A DNA stretch of 64,000 nt from Cyanidioschyzon merolae (GCA_000091205.1 AP006488.2); one strand, 5' to 3'. Numbered from the stretch's first letter, positions 22,907-64,000 are shown. Numbers and translations: made by a program. Notes: generated from the letters alone by a model not told the origin.

Positions 22907-22998
22907 TGGACACTAACAACGCGATTGCGCTAGGAAACGAGCGCTTCCCGCGCCGCGGCGGGCCTCCCGACAGTGCCCCGTTGCTGCCCAGTTCGAGG

Positions 22999-29105: not shown

Positions 29106-29202
29106 TATCTCGGTCGCGTCAATGGCGTTCTCCGCTAAATTGCGTAGCGTTTCCGCCGTGGATGATTCGTCGCAAAACAAGTAACCGTTCTCAGGACACA
29201 AT

Positions 29203-32377: not shown

Positions 32378-32545
32378 ACGCATGCGGTACCGTTGTCAAA
32401 ATTTAAAACGGTAACGAATGTCGGCTCAACTTCCCGTGAGGAGTGCCGCTGCGTGTGGGTACGCTGTCATTCCAGGGGTAGAGAACCTGTTGCAAGCGGA
32501 CGAAACCAGCGCGGTTGCCTCAAATGCTTACCTCGCTTTTTTTCG

Positions 32546-41605: not shown

Positions 41606-41648
<43 letters not shown>

Positions 41649-43890: not shown

Positions 43891-44154
43891 TCAGTAAAAC
43901 GAACGAAATCCCGCGACCATGGAGGGTAAACTGAAACCTACTGACAGACGCCTCTCAGCCTTTTTCGACGCGCCGCCTGCTATCGGTTTCAGGTTATGCA
44001 GACGAGCCTCGACCCTCAGAGTCTTTCCCAAGAAGCTGGATCGTTTCAGATCCTCGGATCTTATCGTCAACACCGCACATCTTCTGATACTGATGGCGGT
44101 GTTGAAGTCTCGATTCAGAAACTCCTTGCGTGCATTACCGTTGGTTGAACACAC
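43891..44154 (-). pseudogene. Fanzor/TnpB-like 3' fragment (RuvC-III motif) inside the short element on the minus strand
   Basis: FLNRDFNTAISIRRCAVL...LKPIAGGASKKAERRL parallels the master copy FVNRDFNAAINICRCAVL...LEPIIGGRSKKAGRRL. No upstream RuvC-I or RuvC-II is present. Confidence 0.7.
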
Positions 44155-45410
44155 CGATGCAAGAATTGCTAGAACTCATGCCCTCTGCGATATCATAGTC
44201 TTGTCATCATCGCGTCGCGCACACAATTTTTGTCGACTGTCTCCCTTGTTCTTCGTCTTCTTCGTTACGTGCCCTTCTTTGTTCGATTGTCGGCGGGATG
44301 ACGATTTTTCCGTTTGTTTTCGGCAGCTGGCGATGACGGCCCGCCAGGATCTTGGACTTCCATGTCCTTAACGTGCCCTTGGATATTTTATTTTTCCGAA
44401 TGTACTCGCTCCTGTATGCCCTTAGGTGAGGATCTTCCTGGATGGAATCGATTTTGCGGAAGAAGGATGATACGTGCGTCGGTGTCACCGCCCAGAACGC
44501 TACAGCGATTTGCCCTGTGGAGCGATTATTACATTCCATTACAAAAAAACAGTCAGACGATATGGTAGAACAACAAAAAGTTCTATGCAATGAAAAGCGG
44601 ATCTAGCCCAACAAAATGGGCAAACGCTTGGGCGTAACGAGAATGGTGAAATATCACGTTGTCCAGCAGAAGGACGTCGCCAGGCGTCAGCCAAAATTCT
44701 TCAATGATTCAACGCAGGGTGTGGTATTGTGTAAGCGATCTCTATGAGCGAATTTGAGGCTTCAAGATCAAACCATTCCAACTACCAAAGATGATGGTGT
44801 CGTCGTTCTCTTCCAGTTCGATTGTGTAAACAACGGGTGCCCCGTCCGCGAAAAAGACATGTACGCTCCGAGCGTCTCATCCGAAGCAAGTCCGATCGAC
44901 TGGAAAGAACCTGCGGATGTCGGTGTGCTTCATATCGTCCGCTGAGTTCCAGGAATTCTGCAGCTGAGATTTCAGTGGAAAATGGCCGCGCGTGAAATTC
45001 GGCTCTTTACGACTGTATCCCTGTGTTATCAGGACTACGTGAATCAGCTTGTGGGACAGAGAAACGCCTGTGGCGGCTATTACGGCTGCTTTTGCTTTTG
45101 GTAAGATGACCAACGGGTCGTTGTCTACCATTAACCGCAAGCAGTCTTTAAAAGTATCGGTTTTTGTTGGCACGTGGCACAATTGCTTTCTTTCATTGCT
45201 CCTTAAGTATTAGAGTGCTGTTGTATGACTGATCTGTAGGAGGAATACAGTCCTCCTTGCACTATGCAATAGAGAATATATCCGATAGTCAATTCGTCTA
45301 CGATCTGTACATGACTTTGCGTAGTGATTTCGACCGCTTACTAGAAACTGCGAAAATCCAGGCGGAAACACACAGAGGGACAGGAACCCAATGAAGTTGA
45401 AACTCTTTAA
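43943..45410 (-). mobile_element. Short, internally deleted Fanzor-family element, copy 1 (minus orientation)
   Basis: Nucleotide homology to the 56.4-57.8 kb and 61.8-63.25 kb elements along its entire length. It shares the left-end region (aac ttc att ggg ttc ctg tcc ctc tg...) and the right end GGCTGAGAGGCGTCTG. Its left end abuts the prefoldin start codon. Confidence 0.7.
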
Positions 45411-46044
45411 TGCAACGGCGCACTTGCGACCGGCAATCTGCCGACAATGCAGACGTGATGTTTCCAACTACGCTGTTCCAACACATTTCAGGGTTGTACT
45501 TCTAGACGGTATGGCATCTCAGGTGCCTGTCCTAGAGCCGCAAACCTTGCTAGAGGATCCGACTGGTCTGGTGAAGTCGTCACCACAAGGAGCGCGTCCC
45601 TATCTGGAACAACTCGAACTTCAGATTCGATATCGAAGAGCTTTAGAGCTTCGACTAAACTCGCGGCTCCAGGGACTGGAGTCGAAGGTTTCCGATCTCG
45701 AATCTGCGCTGGAGACGCTTGAATTTCTGCACACTGATAACACCGGTGAGCTGCAGCTGCTGGGGGAACTCGAGACCCGCTTCGAACTGTGCGACGGCGT
45801 CTACGCTCGCGCGGTGATTGATCGACAGTCCCTCAAAACAGTGTTTCTGTGGCTTGGGGCGAAGACTATGGTTGAGTTTTCCTGCGAAGAGGCGAAAGCC
45901 CTTCTTGAGAGGAATCTGGATCTGGCTCGAAAGTCAGTGAGGGAGCTGAAAGAGCAGCTCAATACGGTCCGTTCTGAAATAGTGACTGCGGAAGTGAACA
46001 TGTCACGTTTGTACAACGCGGAAGTTGAATTGCGAAGAAAATAA
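45391..46044 (+). CDS. Prefoldin subunit 3 (prefoldin alpha-type, VBP1-like)
   Basis: Coiled-coil, beta-hairpin, coiled-coil layout with VFLWLGAKTMVEF...EEAKALLERNL...EQLNTVRSEIVTAEVNMSRLYN, matching the PFD3 pattern VFLWLGANVMLEY...EDLDFLRDQITT.EVN.ARVYN. Confidence 0.75.
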   Translation: MKLKLFNATAHLRPAICRQCRRDVSNYAVPTHFRVVLLDGMASQVPVLEPQTLLEDPTGLVKSSPQGARPYLEQLELQIRYRRALELRLNSRLQGLESKVSDLESALETLEFLHTDNTGELQLLGELETRFELCDGVYARAVIDRQSLKTVFLWLGAKTMVEFSCEEAKALLERNLDLARKSVRELKEQLNTVRSEIVTAEVNMSRLYNAEVELRRK

Positions 46045-46167
46045 TGACTTAGAATGAGGCGAGAAAGGAAACCGTCTAGAAGAGTGTCTCGGTCTCGACA
46101 AGATGCTGGTTCTTGTCAACGGTTGCTTTGGTATCGATTTCCTCAAGGATGTTTCTGTGTGTAATGA

Positions 46168-48423
46168 TCGGTTATACTCAAAGCACTGAATTTTGGAACA
46201 GCTGTGCTGGCTCACCTTTTATGTTTTTGTTTGTCTTTCTCTCAGGTCCCTCATAAAAGCAATCCATCCTTTGGGTGCGAGAACGCTCGCGGAAACACCA
46301 AAGGCCCTCACTGCCAGCTTGCGAGCATAAGGGCTTCAGTTCTACGAGTGAGTCACTCTGTGGGTTCACCAAGCGAATGAGCTACACGTCGCCTGGCCCT
46401 GATCCTGGGGCTCGGGAGCCCAAAACAGAACTTATCCAGCGCTACCCCAACGATTGCCTCTTCTTCTGCGCATTCCACTCCATGCGTACGCTGACAATGA
46501 CTCCAAAACATGCGGCAGGGTGTCGAGTTTCCACACCCTTCATACGAATGGTGATGAAGAGTCACCGATGGAATACGCAGAAGCACGCGGCTATGGGAGG
46601 CCTTTGCGCGTCGCATACCTGGTCATCGATTCCGTATGGAAACACGAGCTCGTATTCCGCGGGCAACGGACGTTTGCCGCTCTCGATGAGACACGTCCAG
46701 CTACGGACGCTCGACATGTGGCTAGGTACGCCACGAAGGGCATATTGCCGTCCTACACGACGACACAAGCGAGCATGAAGCCACCATGTGCTCCAGTGGC
46801 GACCACATCCCGCAGTTGCCACCGAGCCGCCAAACAGACATGTCCCTTCGACACACCTGATCGTTCGTCGACGCACTTTTGGCTTCTTGGTCCCACTCTC
46901 ATCTGCCGCGATCTCAGAAGAGATCGCTGTCCAGTACGCCGTAGGTGCCATCGAGTACACACGCGAGGGCGGCGTTGAGCGGCTCGGCGATCCTGCATAC
47001 TGGTTCAGGTTCAGAGCAGTCAAAGGCCCCTTGTCGGTTGTCAACCGCCATACAAGCGCTCGCGGATCTATAGACGACGAGTCGTTCGCATCCGTGGACC
47101 CGAAAGCCGCAGAACGCCTTCAGAGCTCGCGCAGCTTCGTTCCCGGCGGATGCTCGCGCAGCTTCTCTAGCTTTGGTGCACCTCGTCCAGCAGCAGCTGT
47201 TCAGAGCAGCTGCGCATGCAGAGGAGCCAGCTGTGCGCATTCCTCGGGGCGTGCTCGAGCGAGCCTTTCCGAGGCACAGTACAGCTGATGCTCTGCACAG
47301 AGGATGCGATACGGCGTGCTCGTGAACTAGCGGAATTGCAAACAAACACATAAACACGCTTACTCACATACACATAAACACAAACACACATTCTAGCGTA
47401 CCTTGACCTGCACGCTACCGCATCAGCGAACGCAAGTGCTACAGTATAGGTCCCTGAAGGAATCGAATGAGCACCACTATCCTCGAGCAGCTGCAGTTCC
47501 GCGCTGAGCGCTCCATGAGGCGCACGCTTTTGATGCCGCATCCTACACTCAGTGGCCGAGAAAAGCGTGACTGATGCAGCGGATTCATGGCGCGTCGATA
47601 GAGCTAAACTGCGGAATAGTGGCGGAGACTGCACTGGCAGCGGACTCGGAAGCGCTGCCCCAACGCCAGCCAGAGTCGCCCTCGCACCGAGCCGACAAGC
47701 TGGCTTTCGCTAGCGCGTTCCGTGAGTCGGAGAACAAAGTGGCCGATCAACTGCGTCGTTTGGAGGGAGCGTACGGCGTGGAGCACGCTACAGCGCACAG
47801 GCGCTTCTCTCCATTTCGCTTGACACGAGCGTACGTCGAGTGCAGTGATCGGCTCTGCAGGACGCTCACCGACGCGTTCAGCACACCGTACGCACAGCGC
47901 GAGCACGAGCACGAGCACGAGCACGAACTCACAACGAAACAGGTAGCGTGGACGAGTGTGAAGCAGTGCCGGACGCTCTAGACGGTGTACGGCAAGCTTG
48001 CCGGACGTCCGACGGCGATGCAACTGGACGCGGCAGGCTCTCTGGGGCGTGACCCCCACCCCCCCGGCAGCGACGTACTGTAGGGCTCTCACTCTCCCCG
48101 AAACTCGAACGCCAGGCTCAGCGTCTGGAAATATGTCGGGCGTGTGGAGCGTCCAGCGAGTTTGTGCCGAACGAGTTCGCCAACGAATCCACGAGGTCTC
48201 AGTGTGGGCGTTGCGGTGAAACGCGACAGACTACCGATGCAGCACTATCAGAGGCGAGTTGCCAGGAGAGCGAGTCCAACGGGTTTCCGCCTGGAGTTAG
48301 ACACCGAAATGGTACGTTTCAGGAAACCAGCGAGTTTGGTGTGTCGTTTATATACACCGGGATCGGTTCTTCTTCGCGGATACTGAACGATAATGGTTTT
48401 CAGCTATTCGATGCTAATGAGTA
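46168..48423 (+). repeat. R2 repeat copy 3
   Basis: Collinear with copies 1 and 2. (CACGAG)5 at about 47899-47926. Confidence 0.85.
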
Positions 48424-48440
48424 CAGCCTCCGTCACTCTT

Positions 48441-49472
48441 TCAGATAAAGAAACCAAAGCGCCCAATTTTCACTTCGAAACTGAGTTCACCCAATGCGCC
48501 AGTCACAAACCGGTACGAGCCTTCCATTGACCCAACCAACTCGCCCGCCGCAGCAGGCCTCTTGAGTTTTATGGGGCATGCCGAAGTGTAAGTGAACTCC
48601 TCACCGCGCTCCAGCACGGGTTGCTTGCCAATCACGCCGGGGCCGCGAACCTCGGAAACGAGGCCCTCCTTTGTCTGAATACGCCAATAGCGGGCAACGA
48701 GCTGGATGGTCTTCGACGTCTCATTCACAATGCGGACGTTATACCCGAAGAGATACTCCCCTGCCTCAGGTTTGGAGTCTTCGAGACGATAGAATGTTTC
48801 CACGCGAACGCGGACACCATTGTCCACCGTGTCGGTAACGTTTGTTAGTCTCTGCTCCGCCTCTTGTGAAGAAGCAGGCGCTGGATTCGGCGTCGAACCG
48901 AAGGCTGCTTCAAGTCGCTTCAAGGCAGCCGAGAGCTCCGGCGAGGGTTTCGGATGCCTTGAGCCCCGCTTTCGACCCGCCTCCGGGAACGCGCTCCTTC
49001 TCGTGTCGGACGCCTTGCGACCAGTGTCTTTTTTCTGTGGTCCGGTACGTTTTTCCACAGCATGTTCCACTGGCGGCGGCGACTCCTTCGACAGCGCCTC
49101 ACGGAGCGCTTGAATCTCCTCTTCGCGCTTTGCCTCCTCAGCTTTCAGCAACGCCTGCTTGAGGTAGACGAAGCGGTCCGTTTGACGCGCTTCGTGCGCT
49201 TCATCTCGCAAACGTGCCGCATCCTCGAAACGCTCTTCTTCCACAGCACGTCGAACTTCCTCTTCGAGATGAAAGATGCGTTTCCAGAGAGCTCTGCGCG
49301 AGTTTTCGTCAAGTCGTGGCGGTGCTCTTTGAAGCGAATCCAGGCCGTTCACACACATTCGCGGACGTCGACCACGAGCCGTGGCAGTCGGAAACCGCAC
49401 ATGACCCACACGAACGCACTTGTAGCTCGCCCTGGGTGCCTTGGGTAAGAAAAAACTCACGTTTGCAAACAT
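48441..49472 (-). CDS. ApaG (DUF525) domain protein with an N-terminal UVR-like helical motif (FBXO3 C-terminus / POLDIP2-like)
   Basis: The C-terminal 125 aa (GVRVRVETFY...YLFGYNVRIVNETSKTIQLVARYWRIQTKEGLVSEVRGPGVIGKQPVL.RGEEFTYTSACP) fit the ApaG fold signature. The N-terminal WKRIFHLEEEVRRAVEEERFEDAARLRDEAHE resembles a UvrB/C motif. Confidence 0.7.
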   Translation of the reverse strand: MFANVSFFLPKAPRASYKCVRVGHVRFPTATARGRRPRMCVNGLDSLQRAPPRLDENSRRALWKRIFHLEEEVRRAVEEERFEDAARLRDEAHEARQTDRFVYLKQALLKAEEAKREEEIQALREALSKESPPPVEHAVEKRTGPQKKDTGRKASDTRRSAFPEAGRKRGSRHPKPSPELSAALKRLEAAFGSTPNPAPASSQEAEQRLTNVTDTVDNGVRVRVETFYRLEDSKPEAGEYLFGYNVRIVNETSKTIQLVARYWRIQTKEGLVSEVRGPGVIGKQPVLERGEEFTYTSACPIKLKRPAAAGELVGSMEGSYRFVTGALGELSFEVKIGRFGFFI

Positions 49473-52269
49473 TTGTTTGGAGGTACACAGAGCACTTCAC
49501 GTTATCACACAGTTGTTCCCCAGGCAGGGGGTTCACCAGATCACAACGGATTCGCGAAGCAGCATCCACGCTCGAATCGGGAGCTCCGTGCGCCCTCGCC
49601 TGGGGCGAAGGCGCTCCCTGGGCTTTCTCTGACAAGCGAAGCTGACTCCGTGCCGGAACACCGGCCGGCAATGGGGTTGCCTCTGGGTGCCTGTGTCCCT
49701 GTGTGCATAGGATTCTGGAAGGAAAAAAACTTCGACTCTGGGGCGTACGCTCTCCTTGGCCAGAGAAGGTTTGGAAGCGGGGGCCTCTGATGTCGTCCTT
49801 ATCAGCTAGGTGGGAAATCTTTCGAAAATCGATTTGTCTATGAGCATCGATGTTCGTACTGAATCATGCCCATGTCAGACGGAAATGGAATAAGTCTCGC
49901 CTGGCTAGCTCGGACGTACACACTAACGTTTGTATCTCTTCCCACTGCCTTCAATACCAGACGTCGTGAGTTTTTTTCTGTGATTGCGTTCTTTTCCTCG
50001 CTCTTATTCCCTGTTTAGAACACGCCAGTCTCTCTTGGCCAACAAGATCCGTTCTTAGTAGTCGATGTATGTTGATGACGGCTTCAGAGTTCCGATTATT
50101 TCTCTTTCGGCAGCTGCCGACGCGCTGCATGCACAGATGATAGATATGAGTCACGATTCGCTTACAAGATTCATATTATTTTAATGTAGCCTCGAAGCGC
50201 CCTTCGCAGCGGTGACACTTGACCATGGTCAGGTTTTCACATATGCCTACCACCTCACCTACTCGTTCAAGGGCCGCCCTACGCCCTGTAAACGCATACT
50301 CTGTTGCTCGGCTCACGTCCTTGGCTGTTACAGAAGGCTCCGATCGATAACCCGCTCCGATTACGGACCCGGTGCCATACCCTGTGATCAGGGGCTTCAT
50401 CCGCGCGATCCCCTCGGCGGGAACGCTCTCCGCTGCACGTACTCCCTGTTCTGTGCTATAGAGGATTTGTGGAATGCCACGTTGTCCATGATGAAACAAG
50501 TCCCGAAACGAAGGTCGACGCTACAGACCAGATCCAGGAATTTCGATCTGTATATGCTGCTTTCGTGCAAACCGCTGTCGCACATTCCATTAAAAACGAT
50601 TGCTCCGATGGTTAAATTCCGAGTCCGAGACAGGTTCCCATACAAAACAAAGAGTCAGGAACCTTTCGGAGCGTACCCGTTGAGACGCATCACGCTGCTG
50701 TCGACTGCCGTTTCGTCGCTGGCGAAAGGACTGGAGGATTTGTCTTTCCAGTGGACTTGATGACATGTCTTGGCAAGTTCAATGAATACTCAGCATGAGC
50801 TTGTGCACAAGCCATCAGCGGGCATTGTATTATTCCCCCGTCAATGCAGCTGGCAAATTCGCTTCGCCTACTGGTCGCCTTGAAATAGGAAAACCGAAGC
50901 TTGAAGAATGCGTGGTTTGAACGCGTCGTTCGTTGGAGAAGGAGCACTGCGGAGGCCTCTAAGTATGAATGGCATGATGGAATCGGCTGTTTGTCAACTG
51001 CCGCTCATGGTTGTCGAGAAGCATCCCAATTCTCGTGATGTAACAAATTTCAGCGATAGCGAATCGAAGGATCCACAACAGAAAGACGACCGAGAATCCT
51101 AAAACTACACAAGAATCCCTTAGCTCCTACTTCTGCATCTTAAGTGTAGAGGCTGTACGCCTGGAAGAAAGTTCGGAAAAATCTATAGGCAGGAGTATAG
51201 CAAATGGTTCTACTCCTTTTGTTAATCTGATACGGGCTCGGTCCCGACGCACGTTCACGAACGTTGCAGCATTCTCAAGCAGTGCTGCCTTGCGGAACGC
51301 GTGTAGCACGTATTGCCGCTCAATTCCATAAAAAACATAATTGTCTTATTTATGTAGGCGTGTTTTGCCTTGTCCAGAATGACGCACTTGCACGCTGTTT
51401 GCCAACGTGGACAAAGATCGATTTGGACGTGCACGCTATCCAGCGGTCTTTGGAGCTTCGCGCACTGTTTCGGGGGTTTTTCTCAATGACAAAACGTTTA
51501 CATTTACCATGGATTTCAGATTGCGGGATGCATCATGGCTTTTAGGTTAGCATCCATCATGAAGCACCTACCACCAAGCTCCATTACCCATACTTCCTCT
51601 CGGATATTCTGGTCGTTTCGCACGCTCCATCGTGTGCCGAGTGCCTGCCGTGAGCACCCGCCATCGCGCTTAGACCGCTGAAGCAGATGCTGCGCGGAGA
51701 CAGAACGGTTTTGCCATACTACTGTGGGCGTCGGCTCGCGGAATCCTGTATCTGATACGCAATCTCGGCGAATTATCATTCTGGGAGCCTGCAAGCTGCG
51801 CAGTCAGAGGCGCTGTTTGCGACAGCGCAAAGCGATGTAGAAGGGTCCACTAGGACCCGGTCGACGCCCCAATGCGGCATACCTTCTACGAGTCCCAGAT
51901 TAAACTGCATTTCGGACGAGTCGCTCAGACCTTGCAGCGGCATATGTCACTTAAGAAACACGTAGCACCAGCCTACCAGACTAGTCCGGCTCGCGGTGCC
52001 TTCTGCCTAGAAGGTAAACTTTAGACAATACGGGAACATTTGTCCCCTTTGAACGTTAATCGTAGAGGAGGAAAAATATATAAAGAGTCGCAGGTGAATC
52101 CAGAGTCTCTGCTTTTTATTCTAAATAGCGCACTCGATACGCGCACATAGGACATCTGACAGTCACCGGATACGACGTCCATGTCGCCGTTGAAGGGAAA
52201 CGCGATCGTGATCAACAGCGTGTTGTACTGCCGGTAAAGTTGGACTTGCGTTAGAGTCATAGCAATGTA

Positions 52270-54704
52270 TAGTTCTTCAATTCAATTTTGTTTCAGCCTT
52301 CAAGTAAGTATATTCAAGTGATTTTTCGCGAGTTCTGGTAGAAGCGTTCCATGAACGTTCTTTTCCAAAAAAATAAAAAAGGAAAGTTATGGAAGAGCAC
52401 GTCGACAATTGTGGAAGCCTGGTGTCGCCGGCTGGCAGAAAAAAACGAAAAACAGAGCCTATCCCGCAGGAACAGGAGAGGACGAAGAAGCGAAGGCAGG
52501 AGGCCCTACGTGGAAGGCTCCAAAAAAGACAACTGTACGACGAGATGGTGGTGAAATCCTGTCTTCGTAAACGTATCAGGGATCCATACAAGGAAAGGTT
52601 GCGAGACGCTATCAGAAACCTTGTCGATTCGTACTCCAAGAAGGATGTAAAGACATCGTCAGGACTAGCGCATTTGGCGAAGGAGATGTACGAAGATGTG
52701 GCGCATATGGAAACAGTCGAGGGTCTGGGCTAGTTCTTCAACATGACCATGATTCGTCGTCTGATGCTTGGTACAGGGGAATCTTCGACGAAAAAAGAGC
52801 TATTGCAAGCCCTCCGCGAAAACTTCGCGGAATTCCACTTCGAGGGTACTCGATACAGGGGTGACCGGGATATTTACACATGCGGGGCGATGAAGTTCAT
52901 CATGAACGTAAAGAACCATTTGACGATGAACCTCGAAAGTTTCATGATGAGCGCCGTGTTTGCGCTATACCTGGGCATCTCTCGCAAAGGAAAATGAGCG
53001 ATTATCAATGGCATCACGAACGATCGCCAGCATGAAAATGAGGTATAATTTGTCGACAAGAGGGCGTCAAAAGAGAGCACGGATGAAGCTTCTGTGATCC
53101 GTGCGGCTATTCAAGAGCACCGTGCAGTCTTAGGGTTGGTGAATCTAGCAGAAAAGATATCAGCGTTGAAAAAAGATAAGGAAAGATACTATCGCCTCGT
53201 CCTGCGCTATTTTGTGTTTCCGGACCGTGAACTCGAACGCAAGGCAGAGATGAAGCTGAGTGAGGAGACAAAAAAAGAGTGGTAGAGACGGAAGGCTTTT
53301 CTAATGGGGAAGCGCTTCAACGTCGTTCCAATGTGCAACATCAAGTCACATTTCGTGACTATCGACTAAAGAATCCTTCACGGCATCATGAAGGAGATGT
53401 GTCCGGAGTTCGATGTTAGCAGGGAGGAGTTCTCCGGTGAAAACCGGGAGACGTACTGGAAGAATATCTTCAGTTTCAAACGTCTGAGAGTGAGCAAGCA
53501 AAAGTTGTTTACTGGGATGATTGAAACCGATGGAGTAGCCTTGTGTATACACTATCGGCGGTTGAAGAGAGATCGTCCAGTTCCCCCCTCGGCGAACCAT
53601 GAAGATGAGAAAGAGGCGGATCTTGCGACGCAGGAGGTAGAGGATAACGACCTCGTCGTTGGCGTGACGAAGGATGAAGATGAGAAGAAGGAGGATCCTG
53701 CGACGCAGGAGATGCAGGATAACGACCTTGTCGTTGGCGCGACGAAGCATGAAGAAAAGAAGTAGGCGTGCCTTGAGACGAAGAAATTGCAGGATAACGA
53801 CTTTGTCGTTGGCGCGGACCCCGGAAACACAAATATCATCACCATCGCAGCACCGAAGCGTGCAGAAGAATGTACTGACGGCAACTTGCGTCCGAAAGAC
53901 ATGCGTCTTTTGAGGTTCTCGAGAGCGAGATACTATCAAGAATCCGGTATAATGAATGCAAGGAAGAAAATCGTTACGTAGAATGCAGGAATGAAGGATC
54001 ACCTGGAAGCTTTGAGCTAGGTGACAAGTCGAGGAGCGGACTTTGAAGCTTTTCGGAAATTCATGGAAGTTCGCATTGCGCATTGGGATGCGCTGTGGGA
54101 GGAGTATACAAAGCCCCGGCGGGCTCGTTTGCGAATGAATTTGTATTGTGGGAAGCAGCGGGCGTTCGCGAACTTTTTCAGTCAGTTGAGTGCCCTCAAA
54201 GAGGATGAAACTCAGCGGCTAGTAGTGGCGTACGGAGCAGGGCGCTAGATGACCCAAAAAGGGACTACGCCAGCTCCAACGACAAGAACATTCAAAGAGT
54301 GTGCACGGCGTTTTGTTACAATACCGATAGATGAGTTCCGAACGTCCTATACACACCATGAACTGGGATGTACACTTCAGCGAGTGGAGATGGAAAAGTG
54401 TCAGCGGAGCCCTGAGGAAATAGCAAAGTACGGACCACTGACGGAAGAGCAAATGGAAAGGAGGGTGAAAGTTCGTGGACTCCTTGCACTAGTAAGTACA
54501 ACGTCTAATGGCAAGAAACGAACGGAGTTTGTGAACCGTGACTTTAATGCCGCTATCAATATATGCAGATGTGCGGTGCTGGAGAGTAGACCTCCAAGGT
54601 CGACAAGAGTGAACTTTGTTGGACAACCCGTCAAAGTCGAACTATATGAGAATAAATTGGAACCAATAATAGGTGGCCGGTCCAAAAAGGCTGGGAGGCG
54701 TCTG
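52270..54704 (+). mobile_element. Fanzor-bearing transposon, master copy of about 2.4 kb
   Basis: Its left end (ttcaattcaattttgtttcagcc) resembles the left ends of the three short elements (ttcaacttgattttgtttcatcc and similar). Its right end ...GGCTGGGAGGCGTCTG is the exact point where all four copies lose homology. Confidence 0.7.
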
Positions 54705-54842
54705 CACATCAGCTGGAGAGTTCTTCTCCAGGGCCCCGGTCGCCACTACTGTACACTGCTGCCGGTAGCAACAAGTAGCAAAAGTTCAACCGACGAGTCC
54801 ACGGATGGATACTCGGCCAAAAGGTTCAGGTCACCGTTTTAG
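52389..54842 (+). pseudogene. Fanzor/TnpB-like RNA-guided endonuclease gene. It is an 818-codon single frame with nine in-frame stops (TAG at 52731, 53283, 53763, 53979, 54018 and 54246; TGA at 52995; TAA at 53046 and 53367) and no frameshift.
   Basis: All seven ORF-track pieces start at coordinates divisible by 3, checked by hand. KKRK/KKRR NLS-like N-terminus, Ruv[18 protein letters not shown]...C ZnF remnant (IDEFRTSYTHHELGC), RuvC-III VNRDFNAAINICRCAVL. The tail after the right end is read from flanking DNA, as in TnpB. Confidence 0.75.
53616..53830 (+). repeat. 3 x 72-bp in-frame tandem duplication inside the Fanzor ORF (the segment just upstream of RuvC-I)
   Basis: [22 protein letters not shown] / [21 protein letters not shown] / (TAG)[20 protein letters not shown]. 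Only the third unit keeps the GADPG catalytic motif. Confidence 0.75.
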
Positions 54843-56088: not shown

Positions 56089-56369
56089 TAGGAACTTTCC
56101 TCCAATGATCGTGGTTCCTCTCTGAATTGAATACTGATTCACGATCTTCGGGTTCCAGGTCTTTGCTTTGCCAGTTCAGGAAGTACGTAGCATCAAAAAC
56201 TACTGAAGCAACCCACAAACCAGCAAGGAGTGTATATCTCATGCAAGGAACCGGGTGCAGCTATGTGGCTTGTAAACCGAAAATACATGGAGCGTCTTGT
56301 AATGGAGTTACTCCGGTGATATTTTCTATCACGAGCTACGTGTGCGGGCATAAGATTTCGACAAGTCCG

Positions 56370-57775
56370 GATCTTATAATCTTTTAACTTGTTTCTGGTC
56401 CACTCCCTCTGAGTCCAGTCGAATGCGTTCTCGCGGTGAAGAGCAAGCGACCGAAATCACTCTAGGATGTACGTTATAGATCGGAGACGAATTGCTTACG
56501 GGATATGTATGCTTTACTGAGTAGTGCAAGGGGGACAGCACCCCCCGCCCTGCGGCTCATTCGTATCGCAGTTCTCAGATGGTCGGGGGTCATTGAAAGA
56601 AACAAGTAGATGCTCTCAGCGCCAAGAGCTGATACTCTCCAAAGAGCTCTCGGTCTATGGTAGAAAACGACCCATTGATTAGCTTACGGAACGCAGAAGC
56701 GACGATAGTAGTCGCTGTGGGCGTCTCTGTTTCTCAACAGCTTGTTCAATGGTCCTGAAAACACCGGGATACAGTAGCAAAAAACTTTCCACTTCAGTCA
56801 CGACAATATTCCACGGCATTCGCTACTACAATCGAATTCCTGTAACGTCGCGATCTGTATGAAGCACAGGACGTTGATTTGTATTTTCAGCCGATGGGAC
56901 TTCCGTCGGACGAGAAGGTCGTGGGAAATATGGCCATTCGCGGAGCAGGGAGCTCGTTGTATTTAACATCGAATCTGGGGAGAAAGATGACATCATTATC
57001 TGTTCTGATTGCAATGGATTCATTCGACGGCGTCATTTCCACTCGCAGAGCAGGCGCATACAACAGCACCAATCACTTCGTCGAACCACTGAAGACTTTT
57101 TCCCTGAAGTCTGGCGAAGACCCTCTGCTGCACAACGTTGTAATTCACCATTCCGGTTGCGTTCGAGCTTTTGCTGATTCAATCGGGCTAGAGCTGCGTT
57201 TCATTCCATTGTACGCAACGTTGTTTTACCCCATCAAAGGACTGTTTTCTATTGTGAATCGTAATGATCGCTCCACTAGGCGAATCGCTGAAGCGTTCGA
57301 CACACGGTGACACAACGGGGCACATTTCGTCTTTCTTCAGCACGTCCTTCTCCCTCCGGGGAGGTCTCCACCCATGGGTATACACAAGTAGGTTCATTTA
57401 AAAAAATAAAAAATCCAAGGGAGAGTCATGGGCATGGAAGTCGAGGATCCTTGAGGAGCTTTGTTGCCGGCTTCGAAAAAACAAGGAACAAAAATCCTCT
57501 TCTCGCCAACCATCGAGAGAAGAAGAACAAGTGAAGAAGAGGAAGAAGAGGGAGACAGGCAAGAAAATGTGTTTGCTCGACCGTACGACAACGAGATTTC
57601 AGTGGCAGAGAGGGTATGCGTTCTAGGAATCCTCGCATTGATGAGTTCCACCAGCTGCAGTAACCGAGGAATTGACGAGATACGATTTTGTGGAGCAGCC
57701 TCTCAGGCACGAGGTGTGCCTTGATAACCTGGAACCGATAGCGGGCTGCTAGTCAAAGAGGGCTGGGAGGCGTCC
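56370..57775 (+). mobile_element. Short, internally deleted Fanzor-family element, copy 2
   Basis: Collinear at about 75-80% identity with 61800-63253 and with the reverse complement of 43943-45410. Its right end is GGCTGGGAGGCGTCCG. The RuvC-III segment is deleted; remnants are SPTIERRRTSEEEEEEGDRQ and LEPIAGC*SKRAGRR. Confidence 0.7.
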
Positions 57776-58586
57776 GTGACTGGGATTATAAATGCGCTCT
57801 ATTGTTGCGAAACGTTTTCGTGTCACTGACGATACAAGAAATTCGCAATTTCCAGTGCTTCGATGACTGCGTTGTGTATTTGGCAAGCTGCTGCTTGTCA
57901 GTTCCACGCGTTTACTTCTGAAGCGATCGTTGCGTCAGCTGCGAATCCCGTTGAACACATTTTTTGTGCTGCTGAGAACATGTCGCTCCTAAAAAGGAAA
58001 CTTGTTTTCGTTCTTGAGGAACTCCGAACCCAGCGGAGCCAAAAGTTTCCTACCGCCATTCATGTCGAATAAGCCTAAAAAACAGACGACTTCGGTACGG
58101 GTGCCAAGGAGCGGATACCCTTACCGATTTGATCAGACTCGACTACCTGACGCATACGTCGAAGAATGCAGTCAGCCTGCACAGTTCAACTCGGGGACGG
58201 CGAAGGGTTCCGAGGCGTCAGCGCCTCTCCATCGGTTAGCACACAACAGGGGACCTCTCTATCAATTCCAGCATTTATGAGCGATCTCAGAATCAGCGCA
58301 TCAATTCCATTTCGAGACTGAGCGAGAGCGGCAGTAAACCGTTCTTGAGTCGCCCCATTTCGCCAAAATCGCATGCTTGCGCATGCGCGCGAAGCCCTGA
58401 AAAGACAGTACCGAAACTCACGCTCGTCTGTTCCATTGGGCCGTATGAACACGTTATTGAGAAACCGCTAGATAGCAGGATTTTCTGCACCATAAAGCAA
58501 AACAAGTTTTTTCATTAAATAGCCAGTACGCTCACTCGTTCTACGGGTCACTGCGTAGCGCCTGCCCCCGGCGATGCACGGGTGCC

Positions 58587-58621
58587 GCTGCGCCCGATGC
58601 GCGTGCAGCATCGGGCGCAGC
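58587..58621. repeat. Perfect 14-bp inverted repeat with a 7-nt spacer (gctgcgcccgatgc-gcgtgca-gcatcgggcgcagc), extendable to arms of about 20 bp with one bulge
   Basis: Direct reading of both arms: rc(gctgcgcccgatgc) = gcatcgggcgcagc. Confidence 0.8.
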
Positions 58622-59052
58622 AGGCACGCATTGAGGATAGAAATGTCCATTGTATAGTTATGTCCCTAATTTTTATACCCGCGCCTCGTTACCGCGCGAC
58701 GCCGGTATTTCGAAATCGGAGGCATCGACTCGGTACGCTGAGAGCTTGACGTGTGCTGAGTCGGGGCGACGACGTTTCCGAGAGTATTCACTTTTCCGCG
58801 TTGTAATCAGCTTGCTTCCTATTGCTTACGTGGCAGTTGGGTGTCAAGTTGGAGCCCTTTGCCGTCGGGCCTGGAGAAGAGGTTCGTTTTCCGAACAGGA
58901 ATTCTGTCTTAAAGAATATGCTTCTATAAAACCGGCACAGCGCAAGTAGCGACTCTTTCTGTGGGTGAACTCTGGTACACGCACACGATTCCAAGTTCGC
59001 CTTGCGAGGTTGATGTTCTGAGAGATCCAACGGTGAACTCTTCTGAGCAAGT

Positions 59053-59940
59053 ATGGAGCGGTCGGGAGGAAGAGGCGACGGCGCTGCACCGCCGCACGAG
59101 CAGCCCGGAGTGCCCTGCCCCGGAGATTCACTGGCCGGGCAGGCACTATCTCGTGCCTTGAGTGGCTCTCCAGCGGAATCAAGCCCCGAGAGCAGCCAAT
59201 CGACATCAAGAGGGATCCTGTCCACTAGCGGTGGCTTCATGCAATCGGAACCATCAGCAGGGGCTGGAAGTTCCATGTCCAGAGCTCCGACACGTGCAGG
59301 CCTGAGCCCGCTCTCTGCATCGCCGGTTCTCCTGGAAATTCCATACGGCTACACAGCCCAGCAACCGTTCGTAGGAACTGCGGGGATGATAGCTCGCCAT
59401 GGACATTTTTTCCATGCAGTTTCTGGAATCCGCCATGAGCTGCGGACACCAGTGCTGGCACCCTTTCCGATGCAGAACATTTCCTCGATCGATGCAGCCG
59501 GTCGTATTTGGCTGCCTTATATTCAAACCATGTGTTCGGGAGCTGGCAATACCGCTTCGATGGGATATTTCGTTGACCCCCGGCGGTATTATCGGATTGT
59601 CAGCCGAAGAGAACGGCGTTTTCTCCAGTGGATGCGCATTCGAGGTCGCGAGACAAGCGTCCAGCAATCGTTTCATGACATGCATGTAATGAGCCACGCT
59701 ATGTTTGTGCAAAGGAATATGTCGTTATGTGCGGGCAGAAGAAGGCGGCGGCATGAGTCGCGAAGGGCTCATGCCCTCCGTCGCCGCCGCGATAACTCTG
59801 GAAGGTTCCTGTCTGGTCCTGCGACGCGCCCGCACTCAACAGTATCCCAGCAAAGTCATTCAACAGCGTCGATGGAGCCACGGACGGGCACCGAAAGCGT
59901 CGAAAAGAACGACCAGGCATCGTTCCATGGTGAGTCATAA
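59053..59940 (+). CDS. NF-YA/HAP2-type CCAAT-binding factor subunit, with an unusually long A1-A2 linker
   Basis: A1 subunit-interaction motif YFVDPRRYYRIVSRRERRFLQW (compare YVNAKQYHRILKRRQARAKLE) and A2 DNA-binding motif RRRHESRRAHALRRRRDNSGRFLS (compare YLHESRHRHAMARKRGEGGRFFS). Confidence 0.55.
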   Translation: MERSGGRGDGAAPPHEQPGVPCPGDSLAGQALSRALSGSPAESSPESSQSTSRGILSTSGGFMQSEPSAGAGSSMSRAPTRAGLSPLSASPVLLEIPYGYTAQQPFVGTAGMIARHGHFFHAVSGIRHELRTPVLAPFPMQNISSIDAAGRIWLPYIQTMCSGAGNTASMGYFVDPRRYYRIVSRRERRFLQWMRIRGRETSVQQSFHDMHVMSHAMFVQRNMSLCAGRRRRRHESRRAHALRRRRDNSGRFLSGPATRPHSTVSQQSHSTASMEPRTGTESVEKNDQASFHGES

Positions 59941-61121
59941 TTGAATTCGTGAAGCTCCGGCCCTGTTCATTGCAATTGTACAGCGGCAACTGGGGAACCC
60001 TATTCATTTTTATGCTGTTCTACATCAACATTTGATAGGATTCGCGCGAACTTTCCTTTTTGGAAAAGCAGATGCCTCGCTTATGAAGGCTCAAACTGTT
60101 CAAGCCCTGTCCATTGTCTATTTTGGTCGTAAAGGAGTCGTCACATATTGAAGCTTTCCGCGTCAAAACACAGAACTCAGACGGTAGTGAAGGGTAGCTT
60201 GCTTTTTCGTGATGTCGTGTGCGGCATGCGCCCACAGAGCGCACTGATGTTTATGAGCAGGCGCTGCGGTGGCCGTTAACACTACTGGACGGCGCCATCT
60301 CTCAGGTGCTGCTTCGTACTGCGTCATCGGCGGATCTGGAGACCCTTCGGACCTGGTTCCTTCGGCAGTCGTCAACTAAGGAACCTGGAAAGTGCTCCAC
60401 CCGAGGGTGCGCTCATCGAAATACAGAACGACAAGCAGCCGCAGGATCGGCGTTGCACACAGTTGACACCGGCCTTCGCCTGATGCGTTTCATGACACGG
60501 GTGCTTACGGGACAGCACCGAATTTTATGAGCACTCCTTTGGGTGGTCATGGAGCGAGTCCGAGTGGCAAAGCGCGCTGCGCAGATCATGCTCGGAGAGC
60601 TTGCGGACAACAGGTTTGCATTGATATATTGAACATCTGCATGCGAACGCTCTATAGGATAGCGACAATAACATTACGACCGGCTGATGTTGCTGCCAAA
60701 AATCGCTCAGGCAAGTTTGAGTCTCAGTGAATACAGATTCGGAGACGGAATTTCTCAGGTCTACGTTGCAAGCTGGTAAAATTGTTGCCCGGAGCTGCGC
60801 TTCAATGCTTGTCCTTTGATTGTTCAGGCCGACCAAATATTTTCTCGCATCGTACCTGTATCATAAAAGGTACAAAAATTCTCGTTCCAGTGCCTCATGA
60901 CCTTTGTCTTAACGATAAAGAATCGCTGTAGTTTGTTTCTCTAGCATGCACTGGGATGCGCATACCTTGTCGCTGCCGCGGACACGATTAAACGTTCGAT
61001 AAACTTCAGCTGAGACGCGCTACAGCATAACGATCATCGATTGCATCCGCTCTCGTTTGCCTCTGCCGTACATTGAAGTTCTGGTACATTCCAGTCGTAG
61101 ACTTTTAAAGGTGGATACAAG

Positions 61122-61652
61122 TCATCGGCTCTGAAACTTCTGAAGTAGCTGATCAAGCAGTTTTTCGAGACGCAAAAACCGCGGTGCGAACTGGAATGGT
61201 ACCCAGAACCCAATAGGAACGTAGCCGTTTCCGATACCGGTAACAAGCCCGGCACTGAAACCGATACCGCAGACAGCTCCAGCTCCGAAACCACCTCCAA
61301 AGACGGCAATCGGTCGAGGTAAAACGAGTCCGCCCACAGCGCCTGGTGCTGAAAGCGCATACCCTGCACCAATGCCGAGAAACGGGCCACCGACGGCACA
61401 GCCGAATCCGAAAACCCAACCCAGTCCCCCGAAGAGATAGCTTTTTGGTGGAGGCGGGGCCCCGTAGGGATAGCTTTTCTCCTGCAAAATTTTGTGAAGT
61501 TCCTCAAGCTCCGAAAGCTTTCTATCAGTTGCGACGATACGAGTTATGCTTAAACGTGTTGCGAGCGACTTGCTCCGCGGCGGCTGCACGCAGGGCATAG
61601 TCGCTGGATGTCGTGACTGAAGCAGTGCTTCCTTAACAGCGCCCCGTTTCAT
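61122..61652 (-). CDS. Glycine-zipper-rich small membrane protein (hypothetical)
   Basis: Repeated GxxxG/A motifs across about 80 aa (FGGLGWVFGFGCAVGGPFLGIGAGYALSAPGAVGG...GGGFGAGAVCGIGFSAGLVTGIGNG). Family not assigned. Confidence 0.3.
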   Translation of the reverse strand: MKRGAVKEALLQSRHPATMPCVQPPRSKSLATRLSITRIVATDRKLSELEELHKILQEKSYPYGAPPPPKSYLFGGLGWVFGFGCAVGGPFLGIGAGYALSAPGAVGGLVLPRPIAVFGGGFGAGAVCGIGFSAGLVTGIGNGYVPIGFWVPFQFAPRFLRLEKLLDQLLQKFQSR

Positions 61653-61799
61653 GACTCTCTACCATTGTCGACGCGTTGGAGCTTTTCCCGCTCCCAGGCG
61701 TAACGAAAGGACGCACGCAAGTATTGTGTCAACTCGATGCCCCGTAAAGACCGTGAAAAATCGGGATTGGTTGCTCAGGCAGCAGAGCGCCCGGGACTG

Positions 61800-63253
61800 T
61801 GAACCTAATCTTGTGTTTCAACTTGATTTTGTTTCATCCGCACTGTGGTGTATAGAAGGAGACAGAAACCACGATGCAATGTATCGCATATATTGTAGAC
61901 GAATGCCTGTGGGATATACTCTGTACTGAACAGTACAGGGAGGACTGCATTCCTCCTTCAGGTCAGTCATGCCGTCGTACGCAGATGGTTGCGGAACACT
62001 GCAAGAACAACGTATATGCGGTCTGCGCTAAAAACCCCATATTTTAGAAGACTTCTTGCCGTCAATGAAAGGAACCGAACCGTTGATCACCGTACGGAAC
62101 GCAGAAGCGACGAAAGTAGTCGCCACGGGCATCTCTTTTTCTCAACAGCTTGTTCGAGTCGTCCGGAAAACACTGGGATACGGTCGCGAAAAATGTTCTA
62201 GTCGAATCACGAACACTTTCTACCAAAATAGCGACGACAGCGTTCATAGAACGTCACAATCCGTGTAAAGCCGAGGGAGGTCGGTTTGTATCTTCAGTCG
62301 ATGAGACTTTATTCTGACGAAACCGTCGAAGCGTACAGGGGTATTCGAGGTGAAGGATCCCGTTGTACGTACGCTTGAACTCGAATAGAACGAGGACATT
62401 ATCTGTTCTAGCTTTAGTGGATATGTTTGGTGGCCTCAGTTTCGCTCGTAGAGAAGGCGCATAGAATAGCACCAATTTTGCCGAATCATTGAAGGCTTTT
62501 CCCCAGACGTCTGGCGACTTCCTTTAGCTGGACAACATGGCATTTCCCCCTTTCGGTTACGTTCAAGCTTTTGCACATCGTATCGGGCTAGAGCTGCTTT
62601 TCATTACTTAGTAATTTCCGTTGTTTTACCGCATCGGAGGAGTCTTTTCCATCGTGAATCGTAATGATCGCTCCACTGGGCGAATCGCTGAACCGTTCAG
62701 CACACAGTGAAACAACGGGGCACATGTCGCCTCTCTTCCGCAAGTCCATCTCACTCCAGGAAGGTCCTGACCCAGGAACATAAACAAGTGCGTTCGTTTG
62801 AAGCAACAGAGATCCAAGGGAAAGGTATGGGCGTACAAGTTGAGGATCCTGGTGTACCGTCATTGCCAGGTTCTCCAAAACAACGAAGAAAATCATCTTC
62901 TCGCCGATAATCGAGCGATGGAGAGCAACGCACGACGAAGAGGAGGATGACAATGAGTAAGGCGAGAAGAGGTGTTTACCCCACAGGACGACAACGAGAC
63001 TGTAGTGGCGTATAGGGCACGAGTTCGAGGAATCCCGGCAAAGATGAGTTTCACCATCGCCGGTAAATGCAGGGAATACGTAAATCGAGAATTCAACGCT
63101 GCTATAAGCACCAGACGATGTGCGATGCTGAAGAATAGACCTGAGGCGCTGACATGATCTAATTTTGTAGGGCAGCCTCTCAGGGTCGAAGTGCACAAGG
63201 AGCGGCTGACGCCGATAGCAGGATACCGGTCGAAACAAACTGGGAGGCGTCTG
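61800..63253 (+). mobile_element. Short, internally deleted Fanzor-family element, copy 3. It retains a RuvC-III remnant.
   Basis: Shares the left-end region and the subterminal hairpin with the other copies. The 3' coding remnant is EYVNREFNAAISTRRCAML...NFVGQPLRVEVHKERLTPIAGYRSKQTGRRL. Its right end is GGGAGGCGTCTG at 63242-63253. Confidence 0.7.
62972..63253 (+). pseudogene. Fanzor/TnpB-like 3' fragment (RuvC-III and C-terminal tail) inside short element copy 3
   Basis: VNREFNAAISTRRCAML followed by an in-frame stop, then NFVGQPLRVEVHKERLTPIAGYRSKQTGRRL. Collinear with the master copy 54530-54704. Confidence 0.7.
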
Positions 63254-64000
63254 CGGATGGATAGTGATTCGCCCTGTGATCGCGAGGCTTTTCCGCACCA
63301 CTTATCACACTTGAATCATGATCGAAGAGTGGTAAATCGCATTGTTTCCCGAAAGACGAGTCATCAGTACCTGCGAAACATCTTCTCTACCATGTGAATG
63401 ACCATCTCCTGCGGTATTTTGAAAATGGAGTGCAATAAGTGATTTTTTTCGTTCGTATAGCTCAAAGAATTCCGCTCTTAGACGTGATTACTTGCGGCTG
63501 GCAAGCAATATGCACCGTCGCATTGCATGGTGCGAATCGTGACCGGGCAACGCAGTCATCGAAAACAAGAATGTGATGAGGTCCGACTAACTTTGCAGAT
63601 GCATCTCGAGAGACGCGTGCTTCCAAACGCCCCGAAATTAGGCTCAGCGTGCGCTTTCGAACAAGCTTCGCATGCAGACATGCTCAGCAATCGCACCCCT
63701 GGTCCATCTGATACGCGCTTCGGATTGGCGTACGGTGCGCTTTCAGAAAGGCCGTACTCGAAGCGAACATGCCGAGCAACTTTGCCAAGTAGCGATATAC
63801 CGCGGATCCGGAGCGCAGCCAGTCGCACGACGAAGCTGCCCACTATCTACAGAGTATACTGGGCATACGGACTTGGCAACATCCATTCATCGGGCGATCT
63901 GTGGCCTGCATGGGGTTTTCACTTGGTCCGCTCTGAAGCTGCTCGTAAACAACAACATGCCGTCCAAAACGCGGTTCCTATGTTGAACGCTGCATGGTGA

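Follow-up and report, generated by a model that had tools for sequence, protein, structure and literature searches.

The window, a 64,000-nucleotide stretch of Cyanidioschyzon merolae DNA (AP006488.2), contains one copy of the published Fanzor1 element CMe-1A, here called M, together with four older relatives, A, B, C and D (Table 1), the last of which adds a fifth copy to the four members counted in a previous sequence-only reading. All five copies are non-functional. Their assignment to one broader family is supported, and the window has exactly five occurrences of the sequence CTGGGAGGCGTCTG when up to two mismatches are allowed, one per family member, where chance alone would give 0.59. 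Exact protein matches to BAM79506-08 / CMF147C identify the window as part of C. merolae 10D chromosome 6. Two sets of 2.1-2.3-kb duplications, 98-99% identical, are also present in the window.

Table 1. Positions of the Fanzor-related copies and their components, counted from the first nucleotide of the window
Copy	Feature	Position	Strand	Basis or similarity
M	Full-length pseudogenised copy of Fanzor1 element CMe-1A	51486-54769	+	blastn with CMe-1A consensus
M	5' arm, TE-N2_CMe (first ~635 bp of CMe-1A consensus)	51486-52120	+	
M	Left motif TTCTTCAATTCAATTTTGTTTCAGCC, inside CMe-1A at consensus ~790-815; homologue of the genuine left end of A/B/C	52271-52298	+	
M	Fanzor1 pseudogene, single frame, 9 in-frame stops, zero frameshifts	52389-54731	+	frame translation
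M	Right-end, omega-RNA-like region overlapping the final Fanzor codons	54650-54756	+	
A	S-type element: transposase relic, Fanzor 5' remnant, Fanzor 3' remnant, right end	43887-45409	-	80.4% to S consensus
A	Decayed DDE_3 (Tc1/mariner/IS630-type) transposase, at least 4 stops and a frameshift	44423-45284	-	tblastn with P0034, residues 4-289, E=1.6e-28
A	Internally deleted Fanzor gene: start codon region 44369-44203; last ~85 codons 44202-43945, including NRDFNTAISI	43945-44369	-	
B	S-type element	56375-57833	+	77.0% to S consensus
B	Decayed DDE_3 transposase, stops and a frameshift	56505-57307	+	tblastn with P0034; Pfam DDE_3
B	Internally deleted Fanzor gene, additional ~80-bp deletion removing the NRDFNAA motif	57428-57776	+	
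C	S-type element	61809-63308	+	80.3% to S consensus
C	Decayed DDE_3 transposase, at least 6 stops and frameshifts	61905-62768	+	tblastn with P0034, residues 2-287, E=1.4e-28
C	Internally deleted Fanzor gene: 5' remnant 62827-62995; 3' remnant 62996-63253, including NREFNAAIST	62827-63253	+	
D	Fifth family member, outside the interval of the sequence-only reading	1930-2548	-	73.5% to S consensus over 528 bp

On the window, blastn with the 3169-bp CMe-1A consensus (PMC3627910, supplementary file 2) gave a single 3291-bp alignment to M with 80.8% identity, covering consensus positions 3-3150, so that the extent of M had to be revised from the 52270-54704 proposed earlier. The right ends of ~60 metagenome CMe-1A-type copies map to positions 54756-54772 of M, and its degenerate tail is likely to extend as far as about 54790. 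CMe-1A was published as a family of ~150 copies with ~80% identity to their consensus, which encodes a 734-aa Fanzor1, is devoid of terminal inverted repeats (TIRs) and was left unclassified; the 5' 635 bp of the element was described as a separate repeat, TE-N2_CMe (Bao & Jurka 2013, PMC3627910). In the metagenome loci, the TE-N2_CMe segment was found attached to the element, solo, or inverted. The Fanzor translation of M shows 73.6% identity to the Fanzor1 consensus protein published for CMe-1 and 70% amino-acid identity to an intact 752-aa protein (P0001), and the RuvC motifs D...E...D occur in order and in one frame (VGADPG, PIDEFRTS, VNRDFNAAINI). Furthermore, a profile of nine CMe-1 family members matched Parasitella parasitica Fanzor 1 (PDB 9cf0) with E=1.5e-13. 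Judged by its significant similarity to established Fanzor1 proteins and the ordered RuvC motifs, M can be assigned to Fanzor1, as the sequence-only reading had it. That reading also took M for a master copy, which it is not, because nine in-frame stops make it a pseudogene, one that belongs to an old published family. The stop codon of its Fanzor gene is itself mutated, leaving the frame open to 54842. An intact Fanzor ORF was found neither in M nor in A, B, C and D, which are without codons ~50-640.

The 3' 109 nt of the CMe-1A consensus folds at -44.3 kcal/mol (z=-3.4, equalled by 0 of 200 shuffles) with the closing stem GCAGUAGUGGGUGGC/GCCGCCACUACUGU, which is nearly invariant in 31 copies and shows no compensatory changes. 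The corresponding fold of M itself is degraded (z=-1.5). No omega-RNA-like fold was found at the 3' ends of A, B and C, where folding is no better than that of shuffled sequence (z~0), and the suggestion that these copies retain an omega-RNA scaffold is thus not borne out. An Rfam search of the omega-RNA-like region returned no match.

The three S-type copies A, B and C are 1459-1523 bp long, and further S-type copies sit in unrelated metagenome loci. Their previously noted alignment to each other was confirmed by sensitive blastn (word 7, +1/-1), which showed collinearity between A and B over 1288 bp (67.2%, E=1e-162), between A and C over 1479 bp (66.4%, E=3e-180) and between B and C over 1239 bp (71.3%, E=0); default blastn detects B-C alone (1011 bp, 73.6%). 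A ~240-bp 3' coding remnant is common to A, B, C and M, with nucleotide identities of 62.9-65.9% for A and C and tblastn E-values of 1e-19 for C, 5e-17 for A and 8e-5 for B. The CMe-1A consensus is matched by A, B and C only at ~787-875, 869-1007 and 2831-3084, and the individual A, B, C and D copies are 63-71% identical to CMe-1A in the matching segments, without the collinearity that M displays. At the consensus level, S and CMe-1A share 74% identity in the 3' part and 79% in the 5' part, and their differences are distributed over the codon positions as 19/13/30, an excess at the third position.

The interior of A, B and C had been interpreted as a Fanzor gene that lost its catalytic core. 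Instead, ~1.05 kb in these copies is without a counterpart in M, and ~0.95 kb thereof is another gene, a decayed Tc1/mariner/IS630-type DDE transposase, of which a coding remnant of ~0.8-0.9 kb is detectable. The consensus translation of the interior matched Pfam DDE_3 with 45.1 bits (gathering cut-off 28.6, E=1.2e-11), and the translation of the S consensus matched the intact 294-aa DDE_3 transposase P0034 with E=6e-58, 45% identity and 99% coverage; the single-copy ORF of B at 56879-57310 scored 21.5 bits (E=2.3e-4), below the DDE_3 cut-off. The catalytic D, D, E triad is present in the S consensus (VDETCF, LLLDNVVFHHS, YPIEGVF) with DD35E spacing and is partly mutated in the window copies, B having H and K (LLHNV, YPIKG) and C having G (YRIGG). 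No transposase gene was found in M or in the CMe-1A consensus by tblastn and consensus comparison. Because of this additional transposase sequence, the consensus-level divergence and the third-position excess, A, B and C belong to a sister lineage of CMe-1A that once had its own working Fanzor, and are not derivatives of M.

Downstream of the transposase relic, the Fanzor gene of A, B and C is reduced to the first ~35-50 codons and the last ~85 codons; the 5'UTR is preserved as well. The proposal that the short copies kept only the 3' end of Fanzor therefore stands with regard to the internal deletion and the 3' remnant but fails with regard to the 5' part, which is also retained. Likewise, a 60-codon remnant with the N-R-D/E-F-N motif was attributed to all three copies, of which B has lost NRDFNAA through its additional deletion; only the last RuvC motif is left in A and C, and none in B. 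The Fanzor deletion junction is identical in A, B, C and the metagenome copies L056/58 and L013. D combines a CMe-1A-type 5'UTR (consensus 786-975) with the A/B/C-type Fanzor internal deletion and an S-type right end, and contains no transposase. The transposase-less leader junction is common to D and CMe-1A and needs to be explained either by deletion having recurred at a short direct repeat or by the lineages having recombined.

Both ends had been considered to be shared between M and the short copies. In fact, 790 bp separate the left motif from the left end of CMe-1A, and ~60 bp separate the right motif from the right end of every copy: homology among A, B, C and D, and likewise among ~60 CMe-1A-type copies, extends ~55-65 bp past GAGGCGTCTG, to ...ACTG(A/T)(T/A)CAC. 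Agreement between copies in the left motif is only 16-17/21, and a 21-mer search with 3 mismatches retrieves C alone. Among the metagenome loci, no CMe-1A-type copy starting at the left motif, that is, at the S-type left end, was found, and CMe-1A was therefore not mobilised via that end. Comparison of the left end of the S consensus with its reverse-complemented right end gave no significant TIRs (1876 of 2000 shuffles reach the score), and significant TIRs are also absent from the CMe-1A consensus. TA can be read at both ends only for B and L056/58; some other copies have it at one end, and A and C at neither, the ends being too decayed for exact placement. Support for a Tc1/mariner mechanism therefore comes from the transposase gene and from distant intact relatives, and not from the ends.

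Such relatives are found on two metagenome contigs, L078 and L080, which carry intact transposase and Fanzor1 pairs with spacers of 45-52 bp. Identity to CMe-1 is 30-31% for their Fanzor proteins (E~1e-80), and identity to P0034 is 39-42% for their transposases. L080 has a terminal inverted repeat of 36 nt, which was matched by 1 of 2000 shuffles, and the left terminus of the S-type copies aligns in register with its left inverted repeat. These pairs likely show the ancestral layout. No intact transposase and Fanzor element of the A/B/C/CMe-1A lineage was found in C. merolae-like sequence.

From the homologies, boundaries, gene content and decay described above, we infer how the ancestor was built, in which order the events took place, and that the encoded transposase once moved the elements. 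The interval most probably (about 0.78) holds the fossils of one ancient C. merolae DNA-transposon lineage, in which a transposase and Fanzor1 ancestor gave rise to two reciprocal deletion lineages. The ancestor would have been a Tc1/mariner/IS630-type element with two genes on the same strand ~50 bp apart. The first would encode a DDE transposase of ~295 aa as the cut-and-paste mover of the element, and the second a Fanzor1 RNA-guided nuclease of ~620-750 aa, with a guide RNA encoded by the last part of its ORF together with the element's right end. The lineage of CMe-1A and M may then have lost the transposase, retained a complete Fanzor1 gene, and acquired additional sequence at the left end (~790 bp, made up of TE-N2_CMe and ~150 bp) and at the right end (~35 bp). 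In the A/B/C lineage, the transposase would have been kept, and Fanzor codons ~50-640 could have been lost in a single event preceding its spread. In D, a CMe-1A-type leader is found together with the A/B/C-type Fanzor deletion.

An improbable alternative is that a D-like, transposase-less CMe-1 derivative with the Fanzor deletion came first, that an unrelated DDE_3 transposon or gene then entered its 5' leader, and that the chimera spread as the S-type. The structure of D, with its CMe-1A leader junction, is what this order of events would leave, and Fanzor elements are often chimeric (Bao & Jurka 2013, PMC3627910). However, L078 and L080, although very divergent, agree in gene order, strand and ~50-bp spacing, which argues for a long-standing linkage of transposase and Fanzor. 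The register with the L080 repeat also speaks against an insertion, and inspection by eye of the borders of the transposase segment reveals neither inverted repeats nor a TA duplication.

The sequence-only reading, in which M is an autonomous master transposon and A, B and C are MITE-like internal-deletion derivatives that kept both cis-acting ends and were mobilised in trans, is very unlikely and, in our judgement, already refuted by the transposase content and the consensus divergence. It accommodates the internal deletion of Fanzor in A, B and C and the sequences that they have in common with M, namely the 3' remnant, CTGGGAGGCGTCTG and the left motif. Nevertheless, Fanzor nucleases are not transposases, and no transposase is encoded by M, itself a pseudogene; the transposase sequence in A, B and C is absent from both M and the CMe-1A consensus, the consensus sequences diverge by 21-26%, and the shared motifs are not termini, with no TIRs found. 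Segmental duplication of one locus is least likely of all: four or five copies do lie within 64 kb, in a window that has other duplications, but the flanks of A, B and C share no similarity, even immediately next to the element; A and D lie in the opposite orientation to B and C; and the copies are no closer to each other (66-71%) than to copies on unrelated metagenome contigs (67-71%).

A more specific scenario is a long shot. The S-type would be the missing link that places CMe-1A as a Tc1/mariner-derived Fanzor1, which lost its transposase, was captured in a TE-N2-related repeat and was amplified by some other mechanism, with ~35 bp of old flank carried after the omega-RNA scaffold as the same "frozen" guide in each copy. 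If so, the fixed guide could steer Fanzor cleavage to one recurrent genomic sequence, and such cleavage might account for the left ends of CMe-1A repeatedly abutting TE-N2 in either orientation.

The elements in the window are ordinary transposon fossils, and none constitutes a usable or active Fanzor system. A, B and C resemble MITEs in being shortened compared with a longer related element and in occurring in several copies. In contrast to MITEs, which are shorter than ~800 bp, non-coding and equipped with TIRs and TSDs, they are 1.46-1.52 kb long, encode a broken transposase and have no significant TIR, and the description of these copies as MITE-like and non-autonomous does not fit; a de novo survey reported no MITEs in C. 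merolae (PMC3964958). With respect to Parasitella parasitica Fanzor 1 (PpFz1, PDB 9cf0-9cf3), the CMe-1 profile covers WED/RuvC-I and RuvC-II/III with conserved D, E, D contexts, whereas the zinc-finger region of CMe-1, which is known from sequence alone, is atypical (THHELGC...KC), and M is unable to make the protein. M shares with CMe-1A and TE-N2_CMe the collinear consensus, the TE-N2 5' arm, the Fanzor1 ORF and the lack of TIRs, but it is dead, while A, B, C and D match three short consensus segments only and A, B and C carry a transposase. The annotation of the locus is corrected accordingly: the Fanzor element is the known CMe-1A, with boundaries 0.8 kb wider than proposed. The transposase gene carried by A, B and C is not mentioned for C. 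merolae by Bao & Jurka (2013, PMC3627910), who described PUl-1 of Pythium ultimum and PGv-1 of Phaeocystis globosa virus as Mariner-Fanzor1 composite transposons (Mob DNA 4:12). In PUl-1 and PGv-1, a Tc1/mariner-type transposase gene is followed by Fanzor1, the layout inferred for the A/B/C ancestor and intact in L078 and L080. PUl-1, compared by its description, differs in having clear 24-bp TIRs and TA duplications, whereas the C. merolae copies are TIR-less, with a truncated Fanzor and a broken transposase. The modest new point is that C. merolae also has a sister lineage with a mariner/IS630-type transposase directly upstream of Fanzor, as in intact elements elsewhere. This lineage offers a plausible superfamily assignment for CMe-1A, and the fossils of the S-type copies hint at the transposon class from which the CMe-1A Fanzor family came.

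The short elements A, B and C, which lie on either side of a large Fanzor1 copy (M) on chromosome 6 of Cyanidioschyzon merolae 10D, are decayed, once transposase-encoding relatives of M with a gutted Fanzor gene, and not the MITE-like derivatives of M that the sequence-only reading had proposed. The repeat family itself is real: sensitive blastn gives collinear alignments among A (minus strand), B, and C that span 1.25-1.48 kb at 66-71% identity (E = 1e-162 to 0), and ~240 bp at the 3' end of M is common to each of them. A default blastn self-comparison of the window gave the B-C match (56653-57653 vs 62061-63056, 73.6% over 1011 bp) and, as the other family match, a short one between 2002-2228 and 43945-44169. 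With at most two mismatches allowed, the CTGGGAGGCGTCTG motif was found at five sites in the 64 kb (0.59 expected), one in each family member, the fifth being element D. The assignment to Fanzor was also right, as a nine-member family profile matches Parasitella parasitica Fanzor 1 (PDB 9cf0, E=1.5e-13); the RuvC contexts GADPG, DEFRTS, and NRDFNAAINI are present in M. Pfam searches of M and the CMe-1 consensus protein and single-sequence PDB searches gave no match, the Fanzor similarity being found by profile search only.

Features in the window, in the CMe-1A consensus, and in related metagenome loci
Feature	Sequence	Coordinates	Strand	Description
M	window	51486-54769	+	large Fanzor1 copy
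A	window	45409-43887	-	short-type (S-type) element
B	window	56375-57833	+	S-type element
C	window	61809-63308	+	S-type element
D	window	~2548-1930	-	fifth family member, outside the interval first delimited
Match 1 to A/B/C	CMe-1A consensus	~787-875		first ~80-90 bp of A/B/C
Match 2 to A/B/C	CMe-1A consensus	869-1007		leader and first ~35-50 Fanzor codons
Match 3 to A/B/C	CMe-1A consensus	2831-3084 and ~50 bp beyond		last ~85 codons and right end
2.26-kb repeats (three)	window	32543-34792, 39880-42145, 46168-48424		mutual identity 98.3-98.8%
Second near-identical repeat set	window	5531-7631, 22995-25095, 27721-29108		99.4% over 2.1 kb; third copy 1.39 kb
Distant second Fanzor1-like relic	window	15550-16663	-	24-31% aa identity to CMe-1 residues 329-707, E=6e-16
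Different DDE_3 transposase relic	window	50448-50717	-	DETAVD…FIMDNVAFHKS; 30% to P0034 residues 133-222, E=8.6e-8
Two-gene element	L078	454-3270		296-aa DDE_3 transposase; 52 bp downstream, same strand, 624-aa Fanzor1 homologue
Two-gene element	L080	383-3438		296-aa DDE_3 transposase and 620-aa Fanzor1 homologue, same arrangement, 45-bp spacer

M belongs to an already published family, CMe-1A, for which ~150 copies were reported in C. merolae, each with ~80% identity to the 3169-bp consensus, and which encodes a 734-aa protein; the first 635 bp (5') are identical to the separate repeat TE-N2_CMe, and the family was published as lacking terminal inverted repeats, with target duplications undetermined and classification unknown (Bao & Jurka 2013, PMC3627910). 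Positions 3-3150 of this consensus, taken from the supplementary file of PMC3627910, align to M as a single block with 80.8% identity, and M is therefore a typical, dead, full-length copy, extending 784 bp further left and at least 65 bp further right than the 52270-54704 first assigned to it. Its coding sequence stays in a single frame from 52389 onwards, interrupted by nine internal stops and free of frameshifts, so that M is a pseudogene and not the master copy it had been taken for. TAA, TAG, and TGA all occur among the stops, which face V, W, E, S, and K residues of the JGI metagenome protein P0001, an intact homologue of 752 aa with 70% identity to M. This mix points to ordinary nonsense mutations and rules out an alternative genetic code; RIP or purely transition-type decay was ruled out because transversions are included. 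The M frame also contains a 75-bp tandem duplication (53593-53816) encoding the acidic repeat ATQE(V/M)(E/Q)DNDLVVG.TK…, whose unit number varies among copies, from a single unit in the published consensus to a higher number in P0001. Three ORFs neighbouring the family are exact matches to BAM79506-08, CMF147C, which places the window on chromosome 6 of C. merolae 10D.

A, B, and C match CMe-1A in three places only, and their other ~0.95 kb is missing from M. The five-copy majority consensus of this interior is almost wholly one plus-strand frame, with a helix-turn-helix-like segment at its N terminus and the motifs VDETCF, LLLDNVVFHHS, and YPIEGVF. Its translation matches Pfam DDE_3 at 45.1 bits (cut-off 28.6) and P0034, an intact 294-aa DDE_3/HTH_Tnp_Tc3 transposase, with E=6e-58 and 45% identity over 99% of the length. 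A minus-strand gene was rejected, the semi-open consensus frame there giving no Pfam match and the transposase lying on the plus strand instead. The transposase genes of A, B, and C are each broken by several stops and frameshifts, and catalytic residues are substituted in B and C. The Fanzor deletion junction is shared by A, B, C, and copies in unrelated metagenome contigs (L056/58 and L013), which argues for one deletion event before the lineage spread; L074 is collinear with the S-type majority consensus across this junction, and B has lost a further ~80 bp together with the NRDFNAA motif.

Between the S-type and CMe-1A consensus sequences, identity is 74% in the 253-bp 3' remnant and 79% in the leader and start. 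Differences in the remnant number 19, 13, and 30 at codon positions 1, 2, and 3, and the codon changes comprise 20 purely synonymous and 24 non-synonymous ones, a pattern which suggests that the two types split when selection still acted on both Fanzor genes; A, B, and C are thus a sister lineage and not descendants of M or CMe-1A. D, which combines a CMe-1A-type leader lacking the transposase with the S-type deletion and right end, would have arisen either through another deletion, between copies of a short direct repeat, or through recombination. In a ~0.5-kb hybrid from L057/L069 (~2380-2930), the leader and deletion are S-type, the terminal hairpin is CMe-1A-type, and the end is CACTACTGTACAC, which indicates that the two lineages have recombined.

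The left boundary of A, B, C, and their relatives is sharp, sequences upstream of TATAGTC/TTTCAAC being unrelated among copies, and the right boundary of A, B, and C lies at …CGTTTTACTGATCAC, ~55-60 bp past GAGGCGTCTG. Only in B and L056/58 can a TA duplication be read at each flank, and a search of the CMe-1A and S consensus ends for terminal inverted repeats gave nothing significant. In CMe-1A, the counterpart of the S-type left end is an internal sequence ~790 bp from the start of the element, and none of the CMe-1A-type copies examined starts there, which argues that CMe-1A was not mobilised through this end; the left flanks of these copies fall into at least three upstream sequence classes, one being inverted TE-N2. 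At the right, ~60 related metagenome copies end at the same position as M, and conservation along the element is highest in their last 60 nt (…GGGAGGCGTCTGCACGTCAGTTGGAGACGTTTTGTCTAGGGCG…CGCCACTACTGTACAC). In many independent CMe-1A-type copies, ~10 variable nt separate CACTACTGTACAC from a conserved palindrome (GTCGTTCGACTTTCGAACGGCG or its variant AACGTTTTTCTTTTGAAAGGCG), past which the copies diverge (for example, the right flanks of L012, ~2026+; L039, ~6222+; L043, ~1523+). The AACGTTTTTCTTTTGAAAGGCG form is included in the published consensus, and the palindrome may belong to the element, may be old flanking DNA amplified along with it, or may be a favoured target.

The 3' 109 nt of the CMe-1A consensus folds at -44.3 kcal/mol (z=-3.4; 0/200 shuffles as good), with a predicted long stem in which GCAGUAGUGGGUGGC within the last codons pairs with GCCGCCACUACUGU at the right end. 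Across 31 copies the stem hardly varies, and RNAalifold found zero compensatory changes in it, so that an omega-RNA reading is suggestive only. The fold of M is weakened (z=-1.5), and for the 3' ends of A, B, C, and the S consensus shuffled sequences fold equally well (z of -0.5 to 0). Rfam gave no match over 30000-64000 either. Retention of an omega-RNA scaffold by the short copies is not supported.

Other repeats lie among these relics. The 2.26-kb repeats, the third of which is located between A and M, are much younger than the Fanzor relics, gave no Pfam or Rfam match, and were not found in 72 related loci, their sole similarity being a weak tblastn match to CMe-1 protein residues 546-608 (35%/63 aa, E~1e-4). 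A second near-identical repeat set and a distant second Fanzor1-like relic are also present; Bao & Jurka listed a single Fanzor family for C. merolae (PMC3627910). The different DDE_3 relic lies ~0.8 kb upstream of the left end of M.

In the simplest reading, the ancestor would have been a Tc1/mariner/IS630-type element carrying both a transposase and Fanzor1, from which CMe-1A may have arisen by loss of the transposase and A, B, and C by loss of the Fanzor core. What is new, modestly, is the physical link of a CMe-1-type Fanzor1 lineage with a DDE_3 transposase in C. merolae; it suggests that a family listed as unclassified derives from a Tc1/mariner element. This inferred ancestral layout is intact in L078 and L080, metagenome/SRA contigs from other organisms, whose Fanzor proteins have 30-31% identity to CMe-1 (E~1e-80) and contain the motifs AIDPGR/CDPGR, DEFRTT/DEHRSS, and NRDLNGAMNI/DRDVNGAMNI. 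L080 is flanked by a 36-nt imperfect inverted repeat (equal score in 1/2000 shuffles), the left arm of which can be aligned in register with the left terminus of the S-type, TATAGTCTTTCAACTGAATTTTGTTTCA (17/36). Both elements are possibly active Mariner-Fanzor1 transposons, and their layout of transposase and Fanzor1 is the architecture reported for PUl-1 and PGv-1 (Bao & Jurka, PMC3627910).
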